A stretch of 64,000 nt of DNA from Patescibacteria group bacterium (GTDB lineage Bacteria; Patescibacteriota; Patescibacteriia; Buchananbacterales; UBA6539): assembly GCA_041662625.1 (NCBI GenBank), contig JBAZSB010000001.1:118467-182466 (forward strand). The letters are read 5' to 3'. Shown one piece after another: positions 20,852 to 64,000 of the stretch. Under the pieces are notes generated by a model. That model saw only the letters and a program-made list of their open reading frames with translations. It made no database searches and was not told where the DNA came from. The number at the start of each line of letters is the position of its first letter. Position 1 is the first letter of the stretch. A program made the position numbers and the translations under genes.

Positions 20852-20890
20852 AGGCAAAGTGAAAACCGCCTGCGATTTTGACAGTATCCC
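20852..20890. repeat. Conserved 40-bp motif (copy 2): aaggcaaagtgaaaaccgcctgcgattttgacagtatcc
   Basis: See 20384-20423. Confidence 0.55.
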
Positions 20891-20975
20891 GAAGGACTCT
20901 ATCAGAATCGAGGCGGTTCCTCGTGTGTTGGGTGGACTCGGACGCCGAGGCTTGGCGACTGGCGTCCTACGTCAG

Positions 20976-21122
20976 TTACTTCTGCTCAGCGTTTTGCCGA
21001 GCTTTTTCGTCGGCCGCTTCCATCAGACTGCCGACTCTGGTAAAGACTCCGCCTATCATGGCAATGATTGTCTCACCAGTCGTGGTTGCAGCCTTTGCCG
21101 GGTTACTACTCTGCTCACTCAT
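20976..21122 (-). CDS. Small protein (48 aa), second gene of a two-gene mini-operon
   Basis: SD ggaagga 6 nt upstream of ATG; 42 nt after the upstream small gene; GC-rich. Confidence 0.35.
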   Translation of the reverse strand: MSEQSSNPAKAATTTGETIIAMIGGVFTRVGSLMEAADEKARQNAEQK

Positions 21123-21164
21123 GGATTTCCTTCCGTTTTCAGGCTCGTGTGCCTGACTGCTTTG

Positions 21165-21350
21165 TCAGCTTCTGACTCGGCTGACCCTTACCACTACGAC
21201 ACATAGCAGCATCGCAGCGCCCCCGTATAGCAGCGCCGCAAAAACTGTCATTGATGTGGGCAGCGCCATACTGCCGGTTATGCCGCCGACAGCGATGCCG
21301 GCCAGCAACAGCACGATGGCGACTGCACCCAAAAAAAGGTTCAATTTCAT
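21165..21350 (-). CDS. Small hydrophobic membrane protein (61 aa), possible paralogue of the 20499-20705 product
   Basis: SD gagggacag; TM helices; TTGACA-17-TATCAT promoter. Confidence 0.5.
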   Translation of the reverse strand: MKLNLFLGAVAIVLLLAGIAVGGITGSMALPTSMTVFAALLYGGAAMLLCVVVVRVSRVRS

Positions 21351-31033: not shown

Positions 31034-31236
31034 ATTTTTTGACGTGGGTTTTACTCCTCGGTTTGAGCGGGACCTTCTTTTTTAGTTTTTAATTATATTC
31101 ACAATCCTAGCTTTTTTAAGTTTTGACTTTGTCCGCCATATTGAGTTCAGAGGCGTATTCCGGTATTCTTGACAAAAATTGATTATTATATAAACTTAAT
31201 TGAGTGATTGATTACGTATATGGAGGGTCAAACCAG

Positions 31237-31557
31237 ATGAAAATACGCAGAGATCGCTGTGATGAGGCATGGGCTAAAGCCCCGATTCTGGCCGAGTTTC
31301 GTCAGGGCACAGAGCCTTTGAGGATTAAGGCTAAGGTTTTTCGAGCGATTATTGCTAGGGTCAAAGATCGCCGAGACGGCTTGATTCGTGTTTTGGCACT
31401 TGACCGACCTGACGGTAAGAAGCGCTTGCGCCAAGAAATCTGCTGGGAAAGAAATGGCATGAGTCGCATTTTTCGCTGCCAGACCAAGAAACCAATGGCT
31501 CTGGAATACAGAGTCGTATTGGACTTGGGTAGGCTCACCAGCTCTTTGTCTGATTAG
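31237..31557 (+). CDS. Hypothetical basic protein (106 aa) in a GC-rich islet
   Basis: SD ggaggg 8 nt upstream of ATG 31237; about 50% GC. Confidence 0.4.
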   Translation: MKIRRDRCDEAWAKAPILAEFRQGTEPLRIKAKVFRAIIARVKDRRDGLIRVLALDRPDGKKRLRQEICWERNGMSRIFRCQTKKPMALEYRVVLDLGRLTSSLSD

Positions 31558-33240: not shown

Positions 33241-34128
33241 ATGAAAGAAGCTTTATTCTATCAAAAATTAGAAAATAAACAGGTGAAATGCGAACTTTGT
33301 CACCAGTTCTGTCAGATTGCTCCTGGTAAACGGGGTTTATGCGGTGTTCGCGAAAATCAAAATGGTGTTTTGGTAACTTTAGTCTACGGTAAGGTGATTG
33401 CCGCTCACGTTGACCCAATTGAGAAAAAGCCGCTTTATCATTTTTTACCAGGAACTTATTCTTATTCCCTGGCCACGATTGGCTGTAATTTCCGTTGTGC
33501 CCATTGTCAAAACGCCGATATTTCTCAGGCCTCAAAAGAAGGTTTATTTTTTCAGCGGCAAGAAATTCCGGGCGAAGAAATGGCGCCAAAAGACGTGATT
33601 GATCAGGCTAAAAAGTCCCAGTGCCCCAGTATTTCTTATACTTACACTGAGCCGACAATTTTTTTTGAGTTTGCTTTTGATTGCATGAAGTTAGCCCAAG
33701 AAAGCAAGCTAAAAAATGTCTGGGTTTCTAACGGTTATACCAATCTACCGGCTTTAGAAATGGCTAAGCCTTACTTGGATGCAGTCAATATTGATTTGAA
33801 ATTTTTTAACGATTCAACTTACAAAAAAATTTGTGGCGCTAGACTTCAGCCAGTTTTGGACAACCTGGTTTGGTATAAACAAAATGGCGTTCATTTAGAA
33901 GTCACTACTTTGATTATCCCCTCTTTAAATGATAGTGATGAAGAATTAACTGGAATTGCTAAATTTATTAAAGACAAATTGGGAGCTGATACTCCCTGGC
34001 ACGTTACGGCTTTTTGGCCGACTTATAAATTGAATGATTTACCGCCGACTTCGCGGGAAACGATTTTGCAAGCCAAAGAGATTGGAGAAAAGGCGGGGTT
34101 GGAGCATGTCCACGTGGGAAATATTTAA
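33241..34128 (+). CDS. AmmeMemoRadiSam-system-type radical SAM enzyme (PFL-activase-like)
   Basis: CNFRCAHCQN CxxxCxxC cluster, N-terminal CxxC...C; start at MKEALFYQKL (ORF opens at 33205). Confidence 0.7.
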   Translation: MKEALFYQKLENKQVKCELCHQFCQIAPGKRGLCGVRENQNGVLVTLVYGKVIAAHVDPIEKKPLYHFLPGTYSYSLATIGCNFRCAHCQNADISQASKEGLFFQRQEIPGEEMAPKDVIDQAKKSQCPSISYTYTEPTIFFEFAFDCMKLAQESKLKNVWVSNGYTNLPALEMAKPYLDAVNIDLKFFNDSTYKKICGARLQPVLDNLVWYKQNGVHLEVTTLIIPSLNDSDEELTGIAKFIKDKLGADTPWHVTAFWPTYKLNDLPPTSRETILQAKEIGEKAGLEHVHVGNI

Positions 34129-34129
34129 T

Positions 34130-35515
34130 ATGCAAAGAAATAAGAAATTAAGAAATCAAAAAATTAAGAAATTAAAGCTATACTCTGTTTTATTTTCTTA
34201 TTTTCTTATTTTCTTATTTTTTTATCCGAGCGTAGCCTTGGCTGAGTATTATTTTAATCCTCATTTTATTTTGACTGATGAAGAAATGACTGACTCGTTG
34301 GCTCTGACTTTGAACGAGGTCCAAAAGTTTTTAGAAGCAAAAGGCAGCGGTTTGGCTAATTTAGTTTCATCAGATTATAATGGCGTTAATAAAAAAGCTT
34401 CAGAGATTATTTGGCAGGCTGCTATTGAAAGCAAAATTAGCCCTAAAGTTTTGCTGGTGACTTTGCAAAAAGAACAAAGTCTAGTGGAAGAACCATTCCC
34501 AACTCAAACTCAATTAGATCGGGCAATGGGCTATCGTTGTCCTGACAGTGGATCATGCAATCCGAGTACGCTAGATTTTGGCAAACAGGTCGACGGCGCG
34601 GCCTGGCAATTTCGCCAATACTTTGATAATCCATTCAACTGGAATTATCAAAAGGGCCAGACTTATGTAGTTGATGATTATTTAATAACTCCAGTCAATC
34701 AGGCCACGGCTTGCCTTTATAATTATACCCCTCATTACTCTGGCAACCGGCATTTTTGGCAAATTTGGCAGAGCTACTGGGGCCGCGATTACCTCGATGG
34801 TTCACTTTTAAAAGGTTATGACAGTCCGGCTGTCTGGCTTATTCAGTATGGCGGCCGAAGATTGATTACTTCCTGGGGAGTTTTGATTTCCCGCTTTGAT
34901 CCGAAGAAAATAATTACCGTTTCCCAAACCGATTTGGAAAAATATGAAATTGGCCCACCGATTAAATTTTATAACTACTCATTATTGGAAGCGCCGGACG
35001 GTAAAATTTATTTGTTAGTTGATGACCAGTTGCGTCATATTGCCAGTCTGGAAGTTTTTCGGATTATCGGTTTTAATCCCGAAGAAGTAATTGCGGTAGA
35101 GGAAGCCGATTTAGCCGGTTATAAATATGGTCCCGACATTACTACCAGTAGTGTCTACCCGACTGGAGCTTTAATTCAAAATAATAAAACTGGCGGTGTC
35201 TATTATGTTGAAGATGGCATAAAACACCCGATTTATTCTCGTGAAATTCTTGCTGCCAATTTTAAAAGCAAGGTCCTGACTGCCGTTAGCCCCGAAGAAC
35301 TAGATCAATATCAGCTGGGCCTACCGGTTAAATTTAAAGATGGTGAGTTGATTAAAGCCAGTAACGACTCAAAAATTTATGTAATTGCCGATGGCCTTCG
35401 CCATTGGATTAAATCTGAAGAAGCATTTGCCAAGTTTTCCTATAAATGGGATAATGTAATTGTCACGACGCAGCAGGCGGTTGAAATTCATCTTCTTGGT
35501 GAAGATATCGAATGA
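34130..35515 (+). CDS. Secreted protein with four degenerate repeats of a (K/D)GxIY.V.DG.(R/K)H.I.S motif
   Basis: Signal peptide after MQRNKK...; start 1 nt after the radical-SAM stop. Confidence 0.5.
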   Translation: MQRNKKLRNQKIKKLKLYSVLFSYFLIFLFFYPSVALAEYYFNPHFILTDEEMTDSLALTLNEVQKFLEAKGSGLANLVSSDYNGVNKKASEIIWQAAIESKISPKVLLVTLQKEQSLVEEPFPTQTQLDRAMGYRCPDSGSCNPSTLDFGKQVDGAAWQFRQYFDNPFNWNYQKGQTYVVDDYLITPVNQATACLYNYTPHYSGNRHFWQIWQSYWGRDYLDGSLLKGYDSPAVWLIQYGGRRLITSWGVLISRFDPKKIITVSQTDLEKYEIGPPIKFYNYSLLEAPDGKIYLLVDDQLRHIASLEVFRIIGFNPEEVIAVEEADLAGYKYGPDITTSSVYPTGALIQNNKTGGVYYVEDGIKHPIYSREILAANFKSKVLTAVSPEELDQYQLGLPVKFKDGELIKASNDSKIYVIADGLRHWIKSEEAFAKFSYKWDNVIVTTQQAVEIHLLGEDIE

Positions 35516-36896: not shown

Positions 36897-37124
36897 CTAC
36901 ATCTCCCACTTGGAAGAGCCGTGTGGCGATTGGGGTGGGTACGGGAACTCGTCACGGGCGACGTTTTCCCAGATTGAGCAAACCCGGTCAAAGAGCCACG
37001 ATAACGCCAGCCCCAGAGCCAGTACAATGCCGAAGGCTTGTCGTCTGACTAGAACTAGCAGACTCGCGCCGACGGCAAGTAGAATTATAACAATTGCCGT
37101 CCAGGTGGTAATGTCTCTTACCAT
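36897..37124 (-). CDS. Small two-TM membrane protein (75 aa), second gene of the operon
   Basis: MVRDITTWTAIVIILLAVGASLLVLV...; SD aagggagga; ATG 2 nt after the upstream stop (tga tc atg). Confidence 0.5.
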   Translation of the reverse strand: MVRDITTWTAIVIILLAVGASLLVLVRRQAFGIVLALGLALSWLFDRVCSIWENVARDEFPYPPQSPHGSSKWEM

Positions 37125-37126
37125 GA

Positions 37127-37276
37127 TCAGTCCTCCCTTATGACCAGAATGCCAAGGCCGCCAAAACAGATGGCACCTACATTCAGGCCGGCTACAATGA
37201 CTAGTACGGCTAGGTGTTTGGCTAGCCAAACTATTATTGCTGCTTGCCACAGAGCAATAAAAAGATCTCCTATCAT
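37127..37276 (-). CDS. Small hydrophobic protein (49 aa), first gene of the operon
   Basis: MIGDLFIALWQAAIIVWLAKHLAVLVIVAGL...; SD ggaggg 8 nt upstream. Confidence 0.5.
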   Translation of the reverse strand: MIGDLFIALWQAAIIVWLAKHLAVLVIVAGLNVGAICFGGLGILVIRED

Positions 37277-37344
37277 AATCAAGCCCTCCGTTGTTGTCCA
37301 CTGCAGTGAGCTTAGATAATTTATAGAAAAAAGTCAATTATAGA

Positions 37345-41840: not shown

Positions 41841-42224
41841 TCAGCCAAAGATGGCTTTGAAGGCAGCCGGAATATCTAGCAACCGTAAACCATCTTCTCC
41901 TTTCCGGAATCTTTTTTCCTCATCTTCGGTGATTGGACTTGCCTTCTTTTGTCTTTTGCTTAATCCCGGATCAAGCTTTGGAGTTGCCTCCGCTTCCCGA
42001 GACGAAGGTTGAGTATTGGGTAGTACCGCGTTAGCGATAACACCCATCACTGCTCGAAAAATCTCTCCTCGAGCACTCTCTGCATCTTTCCCCAATTCTC
42101 GAGGATCAACCATGGCACAACCCTTAAAATTCACCAGGGGTTGGCCGCATTGACAATGGGTAATCTCAAGAACATCTCGAGGTTCTTGTCCTTCCGCTCC
42201 ACATCTTGGGCAAGATATCCTCAT
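41841..42224 (-). CDS. Hypothetical zinc-ribbon protein (127 aa) in a GC-rich island
   Basis: CPRCG...CQCG four-Cys ribbon; SD ggtgagg before internal ATG; ORF opens further upstream at 42365. Confidence 0.4.
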   Translation of the reverse strand: MRISCPRCGAEGQEPRDVLEITHCQCGQPLVNFKGCAMVDPRELGKDAESARGEIFRAVMGVIANAVLPNTQPSSREAEATPKLDPGLSKRQKKASPITEDEEKRFRKGEDGLRLLDIPAAFKAIFG

Positions 42225-42457
42225 AGTAACCTCACCTTTCTTGCTTGGTTTGTACCTTTTGTTCCTTTCTGTTTGTACCCCCATTATCGCCTTGTCATAT
42301 TTAGTTAAAAAAGTCAATAATTGACCAATAAAAAATACAGCCCCAACTTCAGCTGTCTTCTCCACCGAGGGCGGAAAAAACTGCCAAAGAAGGGGCTGGG
42401 TAATGCTTACTGCAATGCCGGTTCAAACCGGTGACTCACGCGACGAGCTGTCGTGCG

Positions 42458-42955
42458 TTAAGCCACGGTAAGGACCGGCGCCGGCGCATACCCGATGATC
42501 AGGCTTGATCCCGGTGCCGGACTGGCGACGAGCGAACTCCCAACGAAAGAACTTCCGATATCTGCGTACGCGGCTTCGACGACGGCGAAATGGTACGCAT
42601 CGGGGTGTGTGGCCGGGACTACGACAGCGGCCATGGTTCTCGTGCCGGCGATGTATGACACATCGCCGGTTCTCATCAACTCAACGTCCACGCGGTTCGC
42701 CGTAATATTGGCTGTGCTCTTCGAAAGGGCCGTGCTCGTCCCAATGTCTACATCGGGCCGGGCGGAAATCGTCAACAGGTAATCGCCAGCGGTCGCAGCG
42801 TACGTTTCGGGCGTGACCGTCAACAGGGGGGTAATCGCGGCAGGCTGTACCACGAGGGCTTCGATCGCAGCGTTCGGCGCGGTCTTCGCGGAAGCCGGGG
42901 TGGCCAGGACGAGCATAATCGTAAACGCAATCAACAGCACGGTACATCGTTTCAT
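42458..42955 (-). CDS. Secreted Ala/Thr/Val-rich hypothetical protein (165 aa) in a GC-rich (about 60%) island
   Basis: Signal peptide MKRCTVLLIAFTIMLVLATPASA; SD agagagg; TTGACA -35 upstream. Confidence 0.45.
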   Translation of the reverse strand: MKRCTVLLIAFTIMLVLATPASAKTAPNAAIEALVVQPAAITPLLTVTPETYAATAGDYLLTISARPDVDIGTSTALSKSTANITANRVDVELMRTGDVSYIAGTRTMAAVVVPATHPDAYHFAVVEAAYADIGSSFVGSSLVASPAPGSSLIIGYAPAPVLTVA

Positions 42956-43396
42956 AGGGACCTCTCTTTCTGATTCGCGTTCCATCTAAGGGACGCAGTC
43001 CTTGTCAACTTCGTTCCGTTTTTGACGCTTGGTGCCAATCTGCCGTTGGCGTTTCTCCTCCTTTCGATCTAGCTTCTTTATCCGAAGCGGATTGGGCTTC
43101 AGTAAGAAGCTAGGGTTGCCAATCTTGGATCAGCCTCCTTTCTCCAGGGCCGCGCTGGTAACACAAGCGGCTGTCACGGCATTCTTCGTAGCCATGATTT
43201 GGAGAACCTCCAGGTACTGTAGAAGCGGCGACATTGCCGCCACAGGTTGGTTGTATACTAACCTATTTTTACCAAAAAGTCAATTTTTGGGGAATTTTTA
43301 GCTAAATTTATTTAAAATAAAAAGTCCCAGCGGTTTTGTGGCACTGGGTGATTCTAATTGGTTATTTTTTAAGTGTAGGAATTATGGTTTCCTGAT

Positions 43397-56562: not shown

Positions 56563-56865
56563 TTAGGCAAGGACAAGGGCGGGTTGTCCACTCGTCGTCG
56601 TGTCGGCGCCGTAATCGCCGCGGCCAGTGAAGAAAGTGGACATCACATCTTCCATATCCGCCAAGGGGCGGTTACCTTCGAAGACGGTCTTTTGGCCGGT
56701 AAACTTCTCCCAACTCGGGGATTTCTCGGCCTCGGCGAGGTCACTTTCGGTGGCGTGGTGGTGTGTGCACCCCGGCCTGATCCGGAGTATGAGTCCGTTG
56801 CTGTCCTTGGCCAGAAATACTGGCTTTCCATTATGGACATATAGGACTTCGATCTTGTACGGCAT
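56563..56865 (-). CDS. Hypothetical 100-aa protein in a GC-rich islet (paralogue A)
   Basis: SD agagaggag; MPYKIEVLYVHNGKPV...PGCTHHH; about 56% GC. Confidence 0.45.
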   Translation of the reverse strand: MPYKIEVLYVHNGKPVFLAKDSNGLILRIRPGCTHHHATESDLAEAEKSPSWEKFTGQKTVFEGNRPLADMEDVMSTFFTGRGDYGADTTTSGQPALVLA

Positions 56866-57075: not shown

Positions 57076-57408
57076 TCAGTCGCTGCTGCAACTACCAGCA
57101 GGAACCGGCGTCGGCTGGTCACTTTGGTGATTGAAGTACACCGTCATGTGGCGGACCATGCAGCGCCGGGCTAAGAAAGTAAAGTCAGGGCTGACAATGC
57201 CCAGGCGCTCGGCGAATGCTTCAGCCGTGGTAAACTCGGGTGTTGTATCCGGGTTAACTGGAAACGCTGGTGAGCCCTCGTCAAAGACCTCAGGCTCGGG
57301 TTCTCCGGCCACAAGAACCATTAGACGGTGCTTTGTGGCCATTCCACCCATACTCTCCTCGACAAGGCAACTTCTTTGACCCGGGTTAACATAAAGAACC
57401 TTTAGCAT
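57076..57408 (-). CDS. Hypothetical 110-aa protein in a GC-rich islet (paralogue B, shares the VLYV(N/H)xG N-terminus)
   Basis: SD ggaggaaaag; TTGACA-17-TAATTT promoter upstream. Confidence 0.45.
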   Translation of the reverse strand: MLKVLYVNPGQRSCLVEESMGGMATKHRLMVLVAGEPEPEVFDEGSPAFPVNPDTTPEFTTAEAFAERLGIVSPDFTFLARRCMVRHMTVYFNHQSDQPTPVPAGSCSSD

Positions 57409-57509
57409 ATCTTTTCCTCCATCCCCGTTGGCTTGGGGAAATCTAGTTTTGCTGTGACTAGCTAGATAAATTATCACGGTAGGTATTTTTTGTCAAAAAT
57501 GAATAAAAC

Positions 57510-59459: not shown

Positions 59460-59897
59460 CTATTTCTTTGTTCGCACGTGGATGACATCGAAGTACTCGG
59501 CGAGCTGATGGAACAGATCACTCGTCAGGTAGTAGACGTACTTGAGTTGGTCTGACTCTTTGAAATTGTTGAAGTCGACCATGGCGACTTTCTTCAAACC
59601 CTCCTGCTCAGAGTCAGGATAAACCACGAGTGTGTAAGTCGCCGAGTTGAAGGACATTTCGGTCAGATCAGCAGTCATCTGCTCGGGCGCAGATTCCCCT
59701 AATCGAATTCGCAGAATTGCTTGGCCAGGACCTTGTTTGACCAAGTCGAAACCCAGATCCCGGGTCTCCTCTGCTTTCTTTGCTGCCTCCTTTGCCTCCT
59801 TGCTCACGTTGGTCAGCGGCTGCTGGCTTTTGGTGCTAGCCAGGCAAAATCCAGCCAGGACAACCAACACCAGCGAAAGAACTGTTGCCTTTCTCAT
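59460..59897 (-). CDS. Secreted hypothetical protein (145 aa) in a GC-rich (about 52%) islet
   Basis: SD aaggaggg before MRKATVLSLVLVVLAGFCLA signal peptide; TTGACA-17-TAAGAT promoter. Confidence 0.5.
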   Translation of the reverse strand: MRKATVLSLVLVVLAGFCLASTKSQQPLTNVSKEAKEAAKKAEETRDLGFDLVKQGPGQAILRIRLGESAPEQMTADLTEMSFNSATYTLVVYPDSEQEGLKKVAMVDFNNFKESDQLKYVYYLTSDLFHQLAEYFDVIHVRTKK

Positions 59898-59994
59898 TTG
59901 AGGACCCTCCTTGTGTGACACGGCAGTTGTCTATCTATTCTTTGGCATCTTATGATTTATTAATTTGGATGTCAATATTGTATAAATTATTAAG

Positions 59995-61098
59995 TTAAAT
60001 TGAATTGATAACGCCGCCACCCAAAACCGTTTGGCCCTGGTAAAAAACTGCGGACTGGCCAGGCATGATAGCGCGCTGGGGTATTTTTAAAGTGACAATA
60101 TTTTTATTGATAGTACAAGGAATGGTTTTGGCTTGGTATCTGATTTTAACGCCAAACTTTTCGGACTTTTTTGGTGGTTGGCCCAAAATCCAGTTAAGCT
60201 CTTTAATCTTAAATTTTTTTGTATAAAGCAGTTTATCGTCGCGATTATTGGAAACAAATAAAGTATTAGTTTTGTAATCTAGCTTAACCACATAGAACGG
60301 GCCAATACCGCCGATTTTAATCCCCTGCCGCTGGCCCAAAGTATAAAGAGGCAAACCATCATGTTGGCCTAAAGCTTTGCCAGCCAGATTTTTGATTGGC
60401 CCCGGCTTTAATTTTAAATGGCGTTTTAAAAAAGGATAATGAGTCTTTTCCGGAATAAAACAAATTTCCTGGCTTTCAGCTTTTTGGTAGACTGGCAGCT
60501 TTAGTTTTTTTGCTATTGCTCTGACCTCGGTCTTGGTTAAATTACCCAGCGGGAAAAGTAAATGCTTAAGCTGATTTTGAGTTAAGGTGTATAGAAAATA
60601 GGACTGATCTTTTTGTTTGTCTTTGGCTGTTTTAAGAAAACAGAGACCAGAGATCAGAGATAAGTTTCTGTTTTCTGATTTCTGTTTTCTGATTTCTGCG
60701 TAGTGTCCTGTTGCCAGATAATCGCAACCAAGCATTTTCGCTTTTCGCAAAAGCAAATCAAACTTAATGAACTGATTGCAGCGGATGCAGGGATTTGGGG
60801 TTAAACCTTGCCGGTGTTTTCTTAGCCAGTCATCAACAACAGTCTTTTTAAATGGTTGCTGAAAATTTAAAGTATACAAAGGAAAGCCGATTTTATTAGC
60901 AACTCTTCTGGCATCATTATAGGCATCAGCTGAACAGCATTTATTTTCGATGTCGGTTTTTGTCTCGGTCCAAAATTTTAGGAAAATGCCAATACAATCA
61001 TAGCCTTGCTGTTTTAGCAAAGCTGCGGCCACCGATGAATCAACGCCGCCGGACATTGCTATTGCGATTTTTTTCCCTTTGTTTAGCTTTGTATCCAT
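59995..61098 (-). CDS. mnmA: tRNA-specific 2-thiouridylase MnmA (coding sequence includes an AGAAATCAGAAAAC x2 repeat)
   Basis: PP-loop SGGVDSS, catalytic Cys; 367 aa. Confidence 0.9.
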   Translation of the reverse strand: MDTKLNKGKKIAIAMSGGVDSSVAAALLKQQGYDCIGIFLKFWTETKTDIENKCCSADAYNDARRVANKIGFPLYTLNFQQPFKKTVVDDWLRKHRQGLTPNPCIRCNQFIKFDLLLRKAKMLGCDYLATGHYAEIRKQKSENRNLSLISGLCFLKTAKDKQKDQSYFLYTLTQNQLKHLLFPLGNLTKTEVRAIAKKLKLPVYQKAESQEICFIPEKTHYPFLKRHLKLKPGPIKNLAGKALGQHDGLPLYTLGQRQGIKIGGIGPFYVVKLDYKTNTLFVSNNRDDKLLYTKKFKIKELNWILGQPPKKSEKFGVKIRYQAKTIPCTINKNIVTLKIPQRAIMPGQSAVFYQGQTVLGGGVINSI

Positions 61099-61387: not shown

Positions 61388-61546
61388 ATGATTTTCCAAG
61401 ATCAAGATGATGATTTAACCACCACTGATGAAGGCATGGATGAAGATGGTGGTGACGACGCCATGGGCGATGATGATATGGATGAAGACATGGATGATAT
61501 GGATGATGAAACTGCCGAAGGCGAAGAAGAAGCCGAAGTTGAATAG
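61388..61546 (+). CDS. Small highly acidic protein (52 aa, 50% Asp/Glu)
   Basis: SD aaaaggag 8 nt upstream; MIFQDQDDDLTTTDEGMDEDGGDDAMGDDDMDEDMDDMDDETAEGEEEAEVE; own promoter and terminator. Confidence 0.55.
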   Translation: MIFQDQDDDLTTTDEGMDEDGGDDAMGDDDMDEDMDDMDDETAEGEEEAEVE

Positions 61547-61580
61547 TTATCTAATCAAGAATCGAATTTCTTCAATTTTG

Positions 61581-61620
61581 AAAAATAGGAGCCAGGTTTC
61601 CCCGGCTCCTATTTTTATTT
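61581..61620. terminator. Bidirectional Rho-independent terminator (ggagccagg tttcc ccggctcc flanked by A5/T5)
   Basis: GC stem with runs on both sides. Confidence 0.65.
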
Positions 61621-61663
61621 ATTGTTGAGAGTAATAATTTAAAATAAAAAGTCGTCCAGATTT

Positions 61664-61800
61664 TTCTCCTCCAAAGCCACTATTTTCTAATAATGAACTT
61701 GGAGGAGAGGAGCTGGTATACACGCTATCGCATGTTACGTCAGCTCCCCAATACTTTCGGACTCGTTTCGCTCGCTTCAGCCAATCGGCTGATTAGCGGG
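61664..61800. repeat. About 130-bp structured direct repeat, copy 1, immediately 3' of the stop codon of the minus-strand gene 61806-62036
   Basis: About 95% identical to 62270-62395; hairpins ctcctccaa...ttggaggag and ggagctg...cagctcc; 5-nt indel between copies destroys the apparent ORF. Confidence 0.8.
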
Positions 61801-61805
61801 AGGAA

Positions 61806-62036
61806 TCACTGGGCAACGGCCAGCGCATTGCGTTTTTCTATGCGCGCCAGCCTCTTGAAATACGCCCAAACCTCATCGCGGAGGTCCTGAAACTCACTGT
61901 TGCGCACGACCCCAATGAGGTCGCGTAACATGGGAGTCCACGTAATCGAATTCCAGGACTTCATGTTACTTTGCAGGTATTCACACCCGCAGTTCTCGTC
62001 ACAATCGTGACATGGGGTAGAACACTGAAATGCCAT
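61806..62036 (-). CDS. Small Cys-rich protein (76 aa; CSTPCHDCDENCGC at the N-terminus), possible metal-binding module
   Basis: SD agaggag; GC about 52%. Confidence 0.45.
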   Translation of the reverse strand: MAFQCSTPCHDCDENCGCEYLQSNMKSWNSITWTPMLRDLIGVVRNSEFQDLRDEVWAYFKRLARIEKRNALAVAQ

Positions 62037-62269
62037 CTCTATATCTCCTCTGTAGAGATTCCGGCTAAGAATAGCCGTGTCTACCTCCGGGTTGACAACC
62101 CATCATCAGTAGACTGACAATCTGCCCTGGCTCCCTATGAACCCGGGGTACTGAATCGCCTGGACAGTGGCGCATTTTTCCAAATTTTCTCGCATTACTG
62201 GCGAGAGGTTTAGGGAAGTATTTTCCCCAAGCTTCTCACCAGTAACTAAGAAATCTTGTAAAGAACTAT

Positions 62270-62395
62270 TCTCCTCCAAACCCACTATTTTCTAATAATG
62301 AACTTGGAGGAGAGGAGCTGGTATACACGCTATCGCATGTTACGTCAGCTCCCCAATACTTTCGGACTCGTTCCGCTCAGCCAATCGGCTGAGGA
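62270..62395. repeat. About 130-bp structured direct repeat, copy 2, starting right after the stop codon of gene 62414-62983
   Basis: See copy 1. Confidence 0.8.
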
Positions 62396-62413
62396 GCAGG
62401 AGGAGTCACCGAC

Positions 62414-62983
62414 TCACAGATTCCGGCATGCCTTTAGGCATGCGACGAACTCTTTGTTCCAGCTCATGTCGCTGTAATACCTGCCTCCCCAGACCCTTTT
62501 GGTTGTTGGAGAAGCGATAAGGCATTCAAGCTCATGGCGGAACTTTTCCTTTACCTCAGGGTGGTCAATTCCCACCGTTGATGCAAAGGTAAGAGCCTCG
62601 GGCTCAGACAAAACTTCAAGCGTTTGCCGGGCCAACTTCTCGTAGAGGAGATCACTGGAGGCAAGAGGATTTTGCCTACCAATGTAGAGGAAGAATATCT
62701 CCAGGGCGTGCGCAATCAGAGTTCGGTCAAAATTCTTGTCTCGCAATACCCTGTCGAGAAAGAAGCTTTCTCCATCGGTGATGAGACAATAACCCTCTCT
62801 GTTGCGGATGGAAATCAGCTCCTTCATAGCTTCTGCTGCCCCTCTCAATTGGACGCAGTTGTAGAGGAACTGATTGCGGTTATTGTATTCCCGCCGCATT
62901 TTGTCTACAAACTTCAATGCCGCCCAAAAGCCCAATACCGCGCCTACTATCAGCGCTACCACAACCACTATCAAAGTACCCAT
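62414..62983 (-). CDS. Hypothetical protein with one N-terminal TM helix and a 160-aa cytoplasmic domain (189 aa)
   Basis: SD gggag; promoter TTGACA-N17-TATATT at 63106-63134; GC about 52%. Confidence 0.5.
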   Translation of the reverse strand: MGTLIVVVVALIVGAVLGFWAALKFVDKMRREYNNRNQFLYNCVQLRGAAEAMKELISIRNREGYCLITDGESFFLDRVLRDKNFDRTLIAHALEIFFLYIGRQNPLASSDLLYEKLARQTLEVLSEPEALTFASTVGIDHPEVKEKFRHELECLIASPTTKRVWGGRYYSDMSWNKEFVACLKACRNL

Positions 62984-63105
62984 CGTTTTTCTCCCGCGTC
63001 ACTCGTAAGTGCCGCTTTTGTATGCCTTTTTTAACTCGGACGTATCCGGTTAGCGTGCGTACACGCAGGCATTGGCCACCATTGGATCTGTTCCAATGAT
63101 TTGTT

Positions 63106-63134
63106 AATATAGCATATTTTAAAGAATATGTCAA
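63106..63134 (-). promoter_or_regulatory. Promoter TTGACA-N17-TATATT for gene 62414-62983
   Basis: rc of tgtcaa 63129-34 and aatata 63106-11. Confidence 0.55.
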
Positions 63135-63216: not shown

Positions 63217-64000
63217 TTAAATTTTTATCAATTCCACGGCGACGCCGGCCAAAAACATGATGATTATCAGATAGACCAAAATTTTAGGCAGATTGATTTG
63301 GTAGGTTGGCTTAAGCTGGCCGGTCTTTTTGGCTTTCTTGTGGATCAAAAAAACCAGGATGCCATCAATGCCCATAGTCACGGCGCCGGTGAAACCGATG
63401 ATGGCGATGAAATCTTTTAGCCCAATGAGGTATAAAAGTAAAGGAATAAAAGTGGCCAGGACCCAGGCGCTGAAATGGGAGAATTTTAGATCATACCAAA
63501 ATATTTTTTTGATGGTTAGCCCGACATTGATGTAAGAAGTAAAAACGGCCAAAGTGCCGAGTAAAAAACCGGCAATCAGAATTTTTTCACCCAAAAAAAG
63601 CTTTAAGCCGCTTAAGGCATCAGGTGTTGTAGTTGAGCCGCAGACGCCCAAGATAAAAAAGATAAAAATCAGGTAAATAAAAGCCGGAATCAGTGAGCCG
63701 GCAATAATAACGCTTTTAAGTTTTTTACTTTCATTGCCTAAAATTTCTCGGACTTCAGGAATAATCGACATGCCGGACAGGGCGAACAAAATCACGCCAT
63801 AAGGCAGGAAGAAGTTGGTAAGTTGGAAAGTTTGTAAGTTGGTAAGTTGGATGTGAGGTAGGCTTTTAATTAGTAAAAAAATTAGGATACCAAAGAAAAC
63901 CATTAGATTAATCAAATCAGAGCGAGAAATAGCCTTGCTGCCCAAAAAAATTACTAGGCTAGCGATGAAGAAAAAGATCAAGACATAAATCAGTTCATTG
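63217..64000 (-). CDS. Partial CDS: C-terminal part of a polytopic transporter-like membrane protein (amino-acid permease-like); frame open past the window end
   Basis: At least 7 TM; the drawn ORF starts on TTG and the frame continues upstream to the window edge. Confidence 0.4.
   Translation of the reverse strand, partial: NELIYVLIFFFIASLVIFLGSKAISRSDLINLMVFFGILIFLLIKSLPHIQLTNLQTFQLTNFFLPYGVILFALSGMSIIPEVREILGNESKKLKSVIIAGSLIPAFIYLIFIFFILGVCGSTTTPDALSGLKLFLGEKILIAGFLLGTLAVFTSYINVGLTIKKIFWYDLKFSHFSAWVLATFIPLLLYLIGLKDFIAIIGFTGAVTMGIDGILVFLIHKKAKKTGQLKPTYQINLPKILVYLIIIMFLAGVAVELIKI

Follow-up and report, generated by a model that had tools for sequence, protein, structure and literature searches.

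We analysed a stretch of 64,000 nucleotides (nt) from the genome of a Patescibacteria group bacterium (order Buchananbacterales, contig JBAZSB010000001.1), referred to below as the window, in which a G+C-rich island (61650-63100, ~50 % G+C against a background of ~39-40 %) is flanked by a Trp/Tyr-type permease gene (63217-64000+, minus strand) and by a convergent gene for a 52-amino acid acidic protein (61388-61546, plus strand), the latter being followed by mnmA and alaS. The island contains two open reading frames (ORFs), gene B and gene A, both on the minus strand, which is the gene-sense strand of the locus, and each is followed by a copy of a non-coding element of ~145 nt, termed R, that comprises three hairpin domains and is located at or a few bases from the stop codon of its gene. 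Genes A and B are unrelated to one another, and R was identified at the same locus in two further Candidatus Buchananbacteria genomes behind other unrelated genes, so that in all, at this one locus, three genomes have R behind five different genes that share no relationship with one another. The locus, termed the slot, contains a structured cassette boundary that is conserved while the foreign genes it delimits, unrelated among themselves, turn over. In the window the order along the gene-sense strand is promoter (P), gene B, R, leader element (L), gene A, R and terminator, with the following coordinates.

63106-63134, minus strand: slot promoter P, TTGACA, 17-nt spacer and TG-extended TATATT, 11 of 12 consensus positions matched
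62414-62983, minus strand: cargo gene B, 189 amino acids, N-terminal transmembrane helix, 49.5 % GC, G+C at third codon positions (GC3) 0.58
62266-62411, minus strand: R copy B, domain 3 at 62365-62407, hairpin 2 (hp2) at 62314-62352, hairpin 1 (hp1) at 62270-62313; covariance model score 133 bits
62187-62268, minus strand: leader element L, conserved start TAGTTCTTTACAAG followed by a long hairpin (62188-62253)
62037-62186, minus strand: variable 5′ untranslated region (5′ UTR) of gene A, ribosome-binding site AGAGGAG; unalignable with other genomes
61806-62036, minus strand: cargo gene A, 76 amino acids, Cys-rich N-terminus, 52 % GC, GC3 0.64
61661-61811, minus strand: R copy A, domain 3 at 61760-61807, hp2 at 61709-61747, hp1 at 61665-61708; covariance model score 148.7 bits
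61581-61616, both strands: bidirectional intrinsic terminator (inverted repeat I6), 94 % complementary, with flanking A and T runs

P lies directly after the permease terminator and is the final backbone sequence ahead of the G+C-rich island. The 5′ UTR upstream of gene B is variable, and L, of ~80 nt, directly adjoins R copy B upstream of gene A. The terminator is common to the slot on the minus strand and the convergent acidic-protein gene and represents the right-hand boundary of the backbone, which from 61619 downward aligns at 88 % with L086, one of the two relatives carrying R. A sub-threshold Rfam match to CsrC on the plus strand (61397-61627; E = 1.6e-7, 33.6 bits where the cutoff is 61) extends over the acidic-protein gene and the terminator and is probably an artefact of GGA/GAT-rich coding sequence.

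Sequence and structure of R

The two copies of R in the window are 94 % identical over 146 aligned positions, an initial annotation of this DNA having given ~95 % for a repeat of roughly 130 bp. Identity is 98 % in a 110-nt core (61664-61773 and 62269-62378) and 98-100 % in the 3′ 100 nt, compared to 81 % in the gene-proximal 42 nt, which include a 5-nt indel. Exactly two copies, in direct orientation, are present in the window, where a 39-mer with up to 3 mismatches gave 2 matches against 0 expected and a covariance model of R identified the two copies and their palindromic reverse-strand shadows only. The only plus-strand ORFs spanning the copies (61693-61890 and 62298-62477) have 25 residues in common and diverge from the 5-nt indel on, and R is therefore non-coding, as had been proposed on the same basis.

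As RNA the copies have predicted fold energies of -68 and -70 kcal/mol (z = -7.3 and -6.3 relative to shuffled sequence). The first domain in 5′ to 3′ order, domain 3, is a long irregular stem with the hairpin CAGCC-GAUU-GGCUG at its tip, followed by hp2 (GGAGCUG...CAGCUCC) and by the 20-bp hp1 (UCUCCUCCAA...UUGGAGGAGA), whose 5′ arm is invariant in all five known copies and resembles an anti-Shine-Dalgarno sequence. The three hairpins named in the initial annotation are all present, although the small AGCC-loop-GGCT hairpin is the tip of the longer stem and not a separate structure. At the base of domain 3, two bases of the stop codon (G and A) pair with a GAGUC further downstream.

R had been described as starting at the first base after each stop codon. 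The tight abutment is correct while the exact position is not, for either gene, as copy A takes in the CAG-TGA that ends gene A, including its stop codon at 61806-61808, and the actual stop codon of gene B (62414-62416) lies 5 nt upstream of an out-of-frame TGA (62406-62408) belonging to copy B. A U-run, reported as lacking, is absent after copy A, where hp1 is followed by AAAAA and was not flagged as a terminator; after copy B the tail AUAGUUCUUU was flagged as weakly terminator-like, and the true terminator of the slot is the one at 61581-61616. No promoter-like site was found within R. Two further candidates were rejected, namely a promoter inside R|L and stop-codon read-through into R, the downstream frame of which differs between the copies.

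The slot in related genomes

We compared the mnmA and permease neighbourhoods of relatives, among which the closest mnmA loci were those of Candidatus Buchananbacteria. R is present in L008 (also represented by L089-L091), where mnmA is 76 % identical to that of the window, and in L086 (also represented by L087 and L088), where the permease is 94 % identical. The order in L008 is P, a 167-amino acid gene, R, L, genes of 139 and 389 amino acids, R, terminator, the acidic-protein gene and mnmA. L086 displays P, L, a gene for a Csx3-like protein of 123 amino acids and a diverged R, followed by a reverse-strand gene of 231 amino acids, a second terminator-promoter module with a gene for a 32-amino acid peptide, the acidic-protein gene and mnmA. 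In the more distant L095 the acidic-protein gene comes straight after the permease gene, representing an empty site, while L010 and L011, likewise empty, have just a short gap at the position of the slot and L098 has clpB there; none of P, L and R was found at this position in any of the four. Gene-plus-R modules consequently number 0, 1 or 2 per genome, and P is kept in the window, L008 and L086 and is not present in L095. The arrangement originally noted in the window, of a gene and a structured 3′ element on consecutive unrelated genes, is strengthened by this comparison across genomes.

The R|L junction is identical in the window and L008, and in L086 L comes directly after the promoter. 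R is 80-84 % identical between species and L 82-85 % across genomes (L008 7619-7695, L086 11247-11326), values at least as high as the 72-75 % nucleotide identity of the neighbouring coding genes, and G+C-rich segments bearing ORFan genes between mnmA, alaS and infA gave no alignment between the window and L089. The two copies of R share one orientation and each sits behind an ORF, with a spacing of 605 nt in the window and ~1.97 kb in L008. Because there are two copies per genome, assemblies break inside R in the short contigs L002, L003, L092 and L093. Exact-protein look-ups of mnmA and the acidic gene identified no strain variants with other cargo.

The second module of L086 (12786-12867 and 12970-13068) combines the permease terminator with a promoter, is 77 % identical to the first and drives the gene for the 32-amino acid peptide, which is hydrophobic, indicating that the regulatory modules of the slot have themselves been duplicated.

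Conservation of structure in R and L

RNAalifold, applied to a structure-blind MAFFT alignment of four copies of R, recovered all three domains with 5 compensatory pairs, and its consensus includes the stem beginning at the G and A of the stop codon. In a further alignment of all five copies (A4), made by hand and fitted to the structure, 94.1 % of cells pair against 37-45 % with slid partners and both partners differ between copies in 6 pairs, one hp2 pair being G-C, U-A or A-U depending on the copy and one hp1 pair U-A or C-G; because the alignment was fitted to the structure and holds only five related rows, these figures lend support to the structure but are no proof of it. A selected structure is most strongly indicated by the divergent copy of L086, domain 3 and hp2 of which are only 52-69 % identical to those of the other copies yet form the same stems, and here too the base of the domain 3 stem contains the stop codon, UAA (UAAUUGG:CCGGUUA). 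Four of the five copies, L086 included, have their stop codon paired in this basal stem.

The RNA fold of the sense strand is the more stable one in four of the five copies. The consensus structure cells include 25 G·U against 11 A·C, two G·U pairs of hp1 being invariant, and since G·U cells would be mismatches on the other strand a sense-strand RNA is favoured. The compensatory changes, the invariant G·U pairs and the divergent copy that keeps its structure argue for R being a selected RNA structure on the sense strand, and the strand comparison favours, if not decisively, its production as RNA in the same sense as the genes.

The consensus of L is a long hairpin. Within L (window 62187-62268, L008 7619-7700, L086 11247-11330) there are two mutually exclusive pairings, GGUGAGAAG:CUUCUCRCC and CUCRC:GYGAG, with a compensatory G-C to A-U change in L008 relative to the window and L086, and these alternative pairings may act as a switch or attenuator. 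We also rejected a kissing contact of the R linker with the L loop, as 7 of 7 bases are complementary in the window and the pairing is lost in L008 and L086.

Cargo genes of the slot

The seven cargo proteins of the three genomes are mutually unrelated, the best blastp E-value among them being 1.7. Sense-strand cargo genes have ~50-54 % G+C and, in those measured, a GC3 of 0.58-0.66, compared to 0.39-0.43 for mnmA and alaS, and these raised values are the coding signature of a source richer in G+C; the reverse-strand 231-amino acid gene of L086 has 46 % G+C and a GC3 of 0.41. Searches of Pfam, PHROG and PADLOC families assigned none of the cargo proteins except the 123-amino acid protein of L086 (11432-11803), which is Csx3-like (PADLOC PDLC01045, E = 6.4e-7, with a weak Pfam Cas_csx3 match) and hints at slot functions related to phage conflict. 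Among 5.8 billion proteins the only homologues of the two window cargo proteins were these proteins themselves, and gene B matched itself and one weak repeat match among 1.8 billion cluster representatives. Single-sequence AlphaFold models of both proteins (predicted local distance difference test scores, pLDDT, of 49 and 60) were too poor to use.

Searches for R and for recombinases

The covariance model, run over the window and 85 related loci (1.27 Mb), returned the five known copies of R at one locus and no others. A 22-mer scan of a genome collection gave 0 matches and a 21-mer scan of metagenomes a single contig from the same organism, by which absence elsewhere is only weakly established. 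Five exact patterns searched in viral contigs gave either nothing or four chance matches that were without the hairpin and rejected by the covariance model, and a blastn comparison of the island with collections of phages and plasmids was likewise negative. Rfam 15 yielded no match anywhere in the window at the gathering threshold; at E ≤ 10 the matches over R, a sub-threshold one to IS128 (E = 0.17, 22.8 bits against an 80-bit cutoff) and one to AaHKsRNA41 (E = 5.2), were not credible, nor was one to a Na+-riboswitch aptamer (E = 0.5), located at the 3′ edge of copy B. No tRNA or transfer-messenger RNA genes were found in the window. The negative covariance, viral, phage, plasmid and Rfam searches indicate that R is not a dispersed miniature inverted-repeat transposable element (MITE), a known RNA family or the repeat of a diversity-generating retroelement, and so far as searched it is distributed over three genomes at one locus. 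A template and variable repeat pair of such a retroelement is also contradicted by the two copies themselves, both being non-coding and differing by mixed substitutions and an indel, with no reverse transcriptase gene found.

Pfam searches of the 30 window ORFs of at least ~220 amino acids gave housekeeping families for 29 of them and no recombinase, transposase or reverse transcriptase. The sole large window ORF without an assignment, of 493 amino acids (34034-35515, plus strand), has no Pfam family at E ≤ 1e-5. A six-frame translation of the window contained no tyrosine-recombinase motif, and the called genes in the 10 kb upstream of the permease included no recombinase, comprising secDF, a sigma-like gene, DUF8128, a TrwB-like ATPase and UDP-glucose dehydrogenase. 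A tyrosine recombinase, for which the initial annotation had proposed looking nearby, was thus not found within ~61 kb on one side or ~11 kb on the other.

Signals of recombination

Within a genome hp2 and hp1, the 3′ 100 nt of R, are 93-100 % identical while the cargo-proximal domain 3 is 87-88 % identical, no better than between species. In L086 hp1 is 95 % identical to that of the window and the remainder of that R is foreign. The first L008 module is flanked on both sides by the 7-nt sequence GTTCTTT; an L-like start of this module, apparently of 28 nt, was reduced by local alignment to these 7 nt. The window organism and the L008 organism, both with two modules, were found in the same samples. 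These patterns, together with the duplicated terminator-promoter module of L086, are consistent with recurrent homologous exchange accompanied by duplications and deletions, the crossovers falling inside the conserved modules, and an ancestral L-gene-R unit that was tandemly duplicated, with its genes later replaced, explains all three architectures without a dedicated recombinase.

R and L as candidate regulatory modules

We favour, at what we judge to be an even chance, an interpretation in which R and L have a regulatory role at the RNA level, as modules of a hyperplastic expression slot, while the same sequences in the DNA double as homology for gene shuffling. This interpretation builds on the conservation and structure of the two elements, the variable cargo and the empty sites, from which we infer both the RNA function of R and L and the route of recombination. 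The slot would have arisen in one Buchananbacteria clade, between the permease gene and the acidic-protein gene beside mnmA, and would consist of the strong promoter P, the leader hairpin L, one or two cargo positions, R behind each cargo gene, and the terminator. On the sense transcript R would form a compact three-domain 3′-UTR or intercistronic RNA structure starting at the stop codon and, together with L, would insulate each cargo message by blocking 3′ exonucleases, by double-strand-specific processing at R|L or by partial termination there. The DNA of P, L and R would serve as homology for duplicating, deleting and exchanging compositionally foreign genes among co-occurring relatives, with the cargo-proximal part of R moving along with the cargo.

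Structures at the 3′ ends of messages that act as stabilisers or in intercistronic processing are known from the repetitive extragenic palindromic (REP) and bacterial interspersed mosaic element (BIME) hairpins of E. coli operons and from the RNase III sites of the phage T7 early genes. R resembles these in consisting of repeated stable hairpins directly behind cistrons of what would be one transcript, and long near-perfect stems such as the 20 bp of hp1 would suit an exonuclease block or double-strand-specific cleavage. However, REP sequences are dispersed in hundreds of copies and R occupies a single locus, T7 sites are single hairpins and R has three domains, and neither REP nor T7 sites are known to be associated with a slot for gene swapping or with the actual stop codon.

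The closest described analogue of the slot is the promoter-early stem-loop (PeSL) cassette of T4-type phages, which flanks ORFan genes in hyperplastic regions, mediates modular shuffling and forms mini-circles (Arbiol et al. 2010, PMC2839356; Comeau et al. 2014, PMC4122927). As with PeSL, short conserved regulatory modules are repeated between the ORFan genes of a hypervariable region, and close relatives differ by insertion, deletion and replacement of whole genes bounded by these modules, the slot being empty, single or double. The modules of PeSL cassettes join an expression function with recombination homology, both of which we propose for the slot, where the terminator-plus-promoter module is duplicated too in L086. 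This separate module of the slot corresponds to the composite of sigma-70 promoter and terminator that characterises PeSL, while R itself does not. The slot differs from PeSL in being located in a Patescibacteria chromosome and not in a phage, with one locus known, and R, at ~145 nt, is much larger than its PeSL counterpart, three-domained and promoterless, sits against the stop codon and has a separate leader hairpin as its partner. Mini-circles form in the phages; in the slot, recombination is suggested indirectly by sequence mosaics. A looser analogy is offered by the minimal mobile elements described in Neisseria (Saunders and Snyder 2002, as described in PMC3787668), which occupy a fixed site with conserved flanks that harbours different whole-gene cassettes in close relatives. 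These cassettes have no mobility genes of their own, and their exchange has been attributed to homologous recombination that follows the uptake of DNA. The slot is likewise a fixed chromosomal site with different cargo in close relatives, although the flanks in Neisseria are conserved genes and the homology in the slot would be provided by dedicated non-coding structured modules repeated inside the site.

A number of points weigh against the regulatory-module interpretation. The RNA role of R is deduced from its structure, as seen in five copies from three genomes for which the best alignment was fitted by hand, and kinship can inflate measures of covariation. In copy 1 of L008 the antisense fold is slightly better than the sense fold. 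Homologous exchange covers turnover among relatives but not the first arrival, between L and R, of genes of foreign composition (cargo GC3 of 0.58-0.66 against ~0.40) that end at or within a few bases of the 5′ edge of R. Finally R, unlike PeSL, carries no promoter.

Alternative explanations for R

R could be a cis-regulatory RNA whose action depends on the termination of translation, or it could serve as the template for a small RNA derived from the 3′ UTR, an explanation that we consider unlikely. A ribosome arriving at the stop codon would open the stem at the base of domain 3 and thereby switch downstream folding, controlling read-through into the following cistron or the release of a regulatory fragment. 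The position of the stop codon in this stem in four of five copies, the divergent L086 copy included, is what such a mechanism would entail, although a plain 3′ stabiliser would also put structures near stop codons. Mutually exclusive pairings with a compensatory G/A-C/U change between L008 and the other two genomes are a feature of L, but no alternative fold of R was identified. At the internal R|L junctions only, hp1 and the U-rich start of L resemble a weak terminator, and the invariant UCUCCUCCAA arm of hp1 is suggestive of an anti-Shine-Dalgarno sequence; the next start codon is however ~230 nt away.

Similarly improbable in our estimation is that R represents the attachment site of an undescribed site-specific gene-capture system, analogous to attC, in which a recombinase encoded elsewhere would recognise R, folded or as duplex, and insert and excise gene-plus-R cassettes by the promoter. 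Integron cassettes are unrelated genes, frequently ORFans, that have no promoter of their own and lie in a single orientation behind a strong promoter, and in integrons and in clusters of attC sites lacking integron-integrases (CALIN) each gene is tightly trailed by a structured repeat of ~60-140 nt, with cassette number varying. The slot shares each of these features, with 0, 1 or 2 modules right downstream of P, cargo that is compositionally foreign and without known relatives, and a boundary at the stop codon in four of five copies. The copies of R are, as in chromosomal integrons, more alike within a genome than between species, and they conform to the spacing of a CALIN (at least 2 same-strand sites less than 4 kb apart with ORFs between). 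The mosaic R of L086, with its breakpoint beside hp1, and the GTTCTTT sequences on either side of the first L008 module could also reflect site-specific events.

By the features that could be tested the slot is nevertheless not an integron. Regular expressions applied to the five copies with 30-nt flanks and to the whole island, on both strands, identified no RYYYAAC/GTTRRRY R′′/R′ pair, in agreement with the initial annotation, which had remarked on the missing cores; a single GTTAAGT occurs in L086, in the linker. Both as RNA and as DNA R folds into three separate hairpin domains whereas attC is a single bulged hairpin, and the 5′ and 3′ ends of R do not pair consistently across copies. No integrase was found nearby, nor any other recombinase, transposase or reverse transcriptase in the sequence searched, and R occurs at a single locus across 1.27 Mb of related sequence, as well as in one metagenome contig, with only one or two units per occupied slot. 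The conserved leader L between R and the next gene has no integron counterpart, and the invariant G·U pairs are better suited to RNA than to DNA. The integron or CALIN interpretation put forward initially consequently fails on cores, fold, recombinase and single-locus confinement, and the shared 3′-UTR RNA element that had been mentioned as its alternative is the better supported of the two. Slightly less probable again than a dedicated attachment site is a further variant, in which R and L together are the recombination site of a gene capture of the Candidate Phyla Radiation (CPR)/Patescibacteria, independent of integron integrases, that joins foreign ORFs at or beside their stop codons to a structured element and places the cassette so formed by a resident promoter.

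About equally doubtful as this variant is the possibility that R is a functionless relic of a local tandem duplication of the 3′ flank of a gene, with gene conversion keeping the copies similar. There are just two copies per genome, 0.6-2 kb apart and near-identical within a genome over the 3′ 100 nt, and tandem duplication of an ancestral L-gene-R unit would yield the shared R|L junction. Between species however R is kept at 80-84 % where nearby G+C-rich ORFan segments fail to align, compensatory changes are present, the L086 copy keeps its architecture despite a different sequence, and R has been retained while the genes between the copies have been wholly replaced. That R is a MITE or the end of an insertion sequence is scarcely credible: it is a palindrome-rich repeat of ~145 nt with a CCTCC/GGAGG motif common to both ends, but it has no terminal inverted repeats past this motif, no target duplications at its ends and no dispersed copies elsewhere in the window or in the 85 related loci, no transposase was found, and every copy has the same orientation and position relative to a stop codon. 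Of the two outcomes against which the initial annotation had set its proposal, a simple local duplication and a MITE, neither was observed.

Other features of the window

Small ORFan genes that are richer in G+C than their surroundings (45-60 % against ~39 %) are wedged singly or in pairs among housekeeping genes elsewhere in the window.

20859-21206 and 31204-31557, plus strand: small ORFan genes
36897-37337, 41841-42365, 42458-42985, 56563-56865, 57076-57477 and 59460-59921, minus strand: small ORFan genes

Neither R nor L was found at any of these eight genes. Inspection of the sequence at 56563-56865 and 57076-57477 revealed a terminator hairpin for both and, for 56563-56865, a promoter that conforms to the consensus. 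Signal peptides are encoded by at least two of the eight. The ORFan genes beside mnmA and alaS show ~77 % nucleotide identity in the close relative L087 and are unalignable with L089.

Within mnmA there is an in-frame palindrome of 56 nt (60635-60690, minus strand; peptide RKQKSENRN...LSLISGLCFL), present in the window, L008 and L095 and absent from L086, which may be a hairpin insert tolerated within the coding region. The permease gene contains four tandem 8-nt units (AAGTTGGT-like) at 63812-63851, within coding sequence for LTNLQTFQLTN.

Significance for Patescibacteria

Patescibacteria have small streamlined genomes, and little is known of how they acquire and express genes. The locus described here is a dedicated chromosomal slot in which foreign-looking genes lie between conserved structured non-coding modules and are swapped between co-occurring relatives, and it contributes a new structured RNA motif with a defined context. 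Were R instead the target of a recombinase, the slot would represent a new gene-cassette system, and capture of foreign ORFs by a CPR-specific route would offer a tractable view of how cassettes gain their 3′ sites. If the modules act as we propose, regulatory cassettes that double as recombination handles, previously described in T4-type phages, would also work in bacterial chromosomes.

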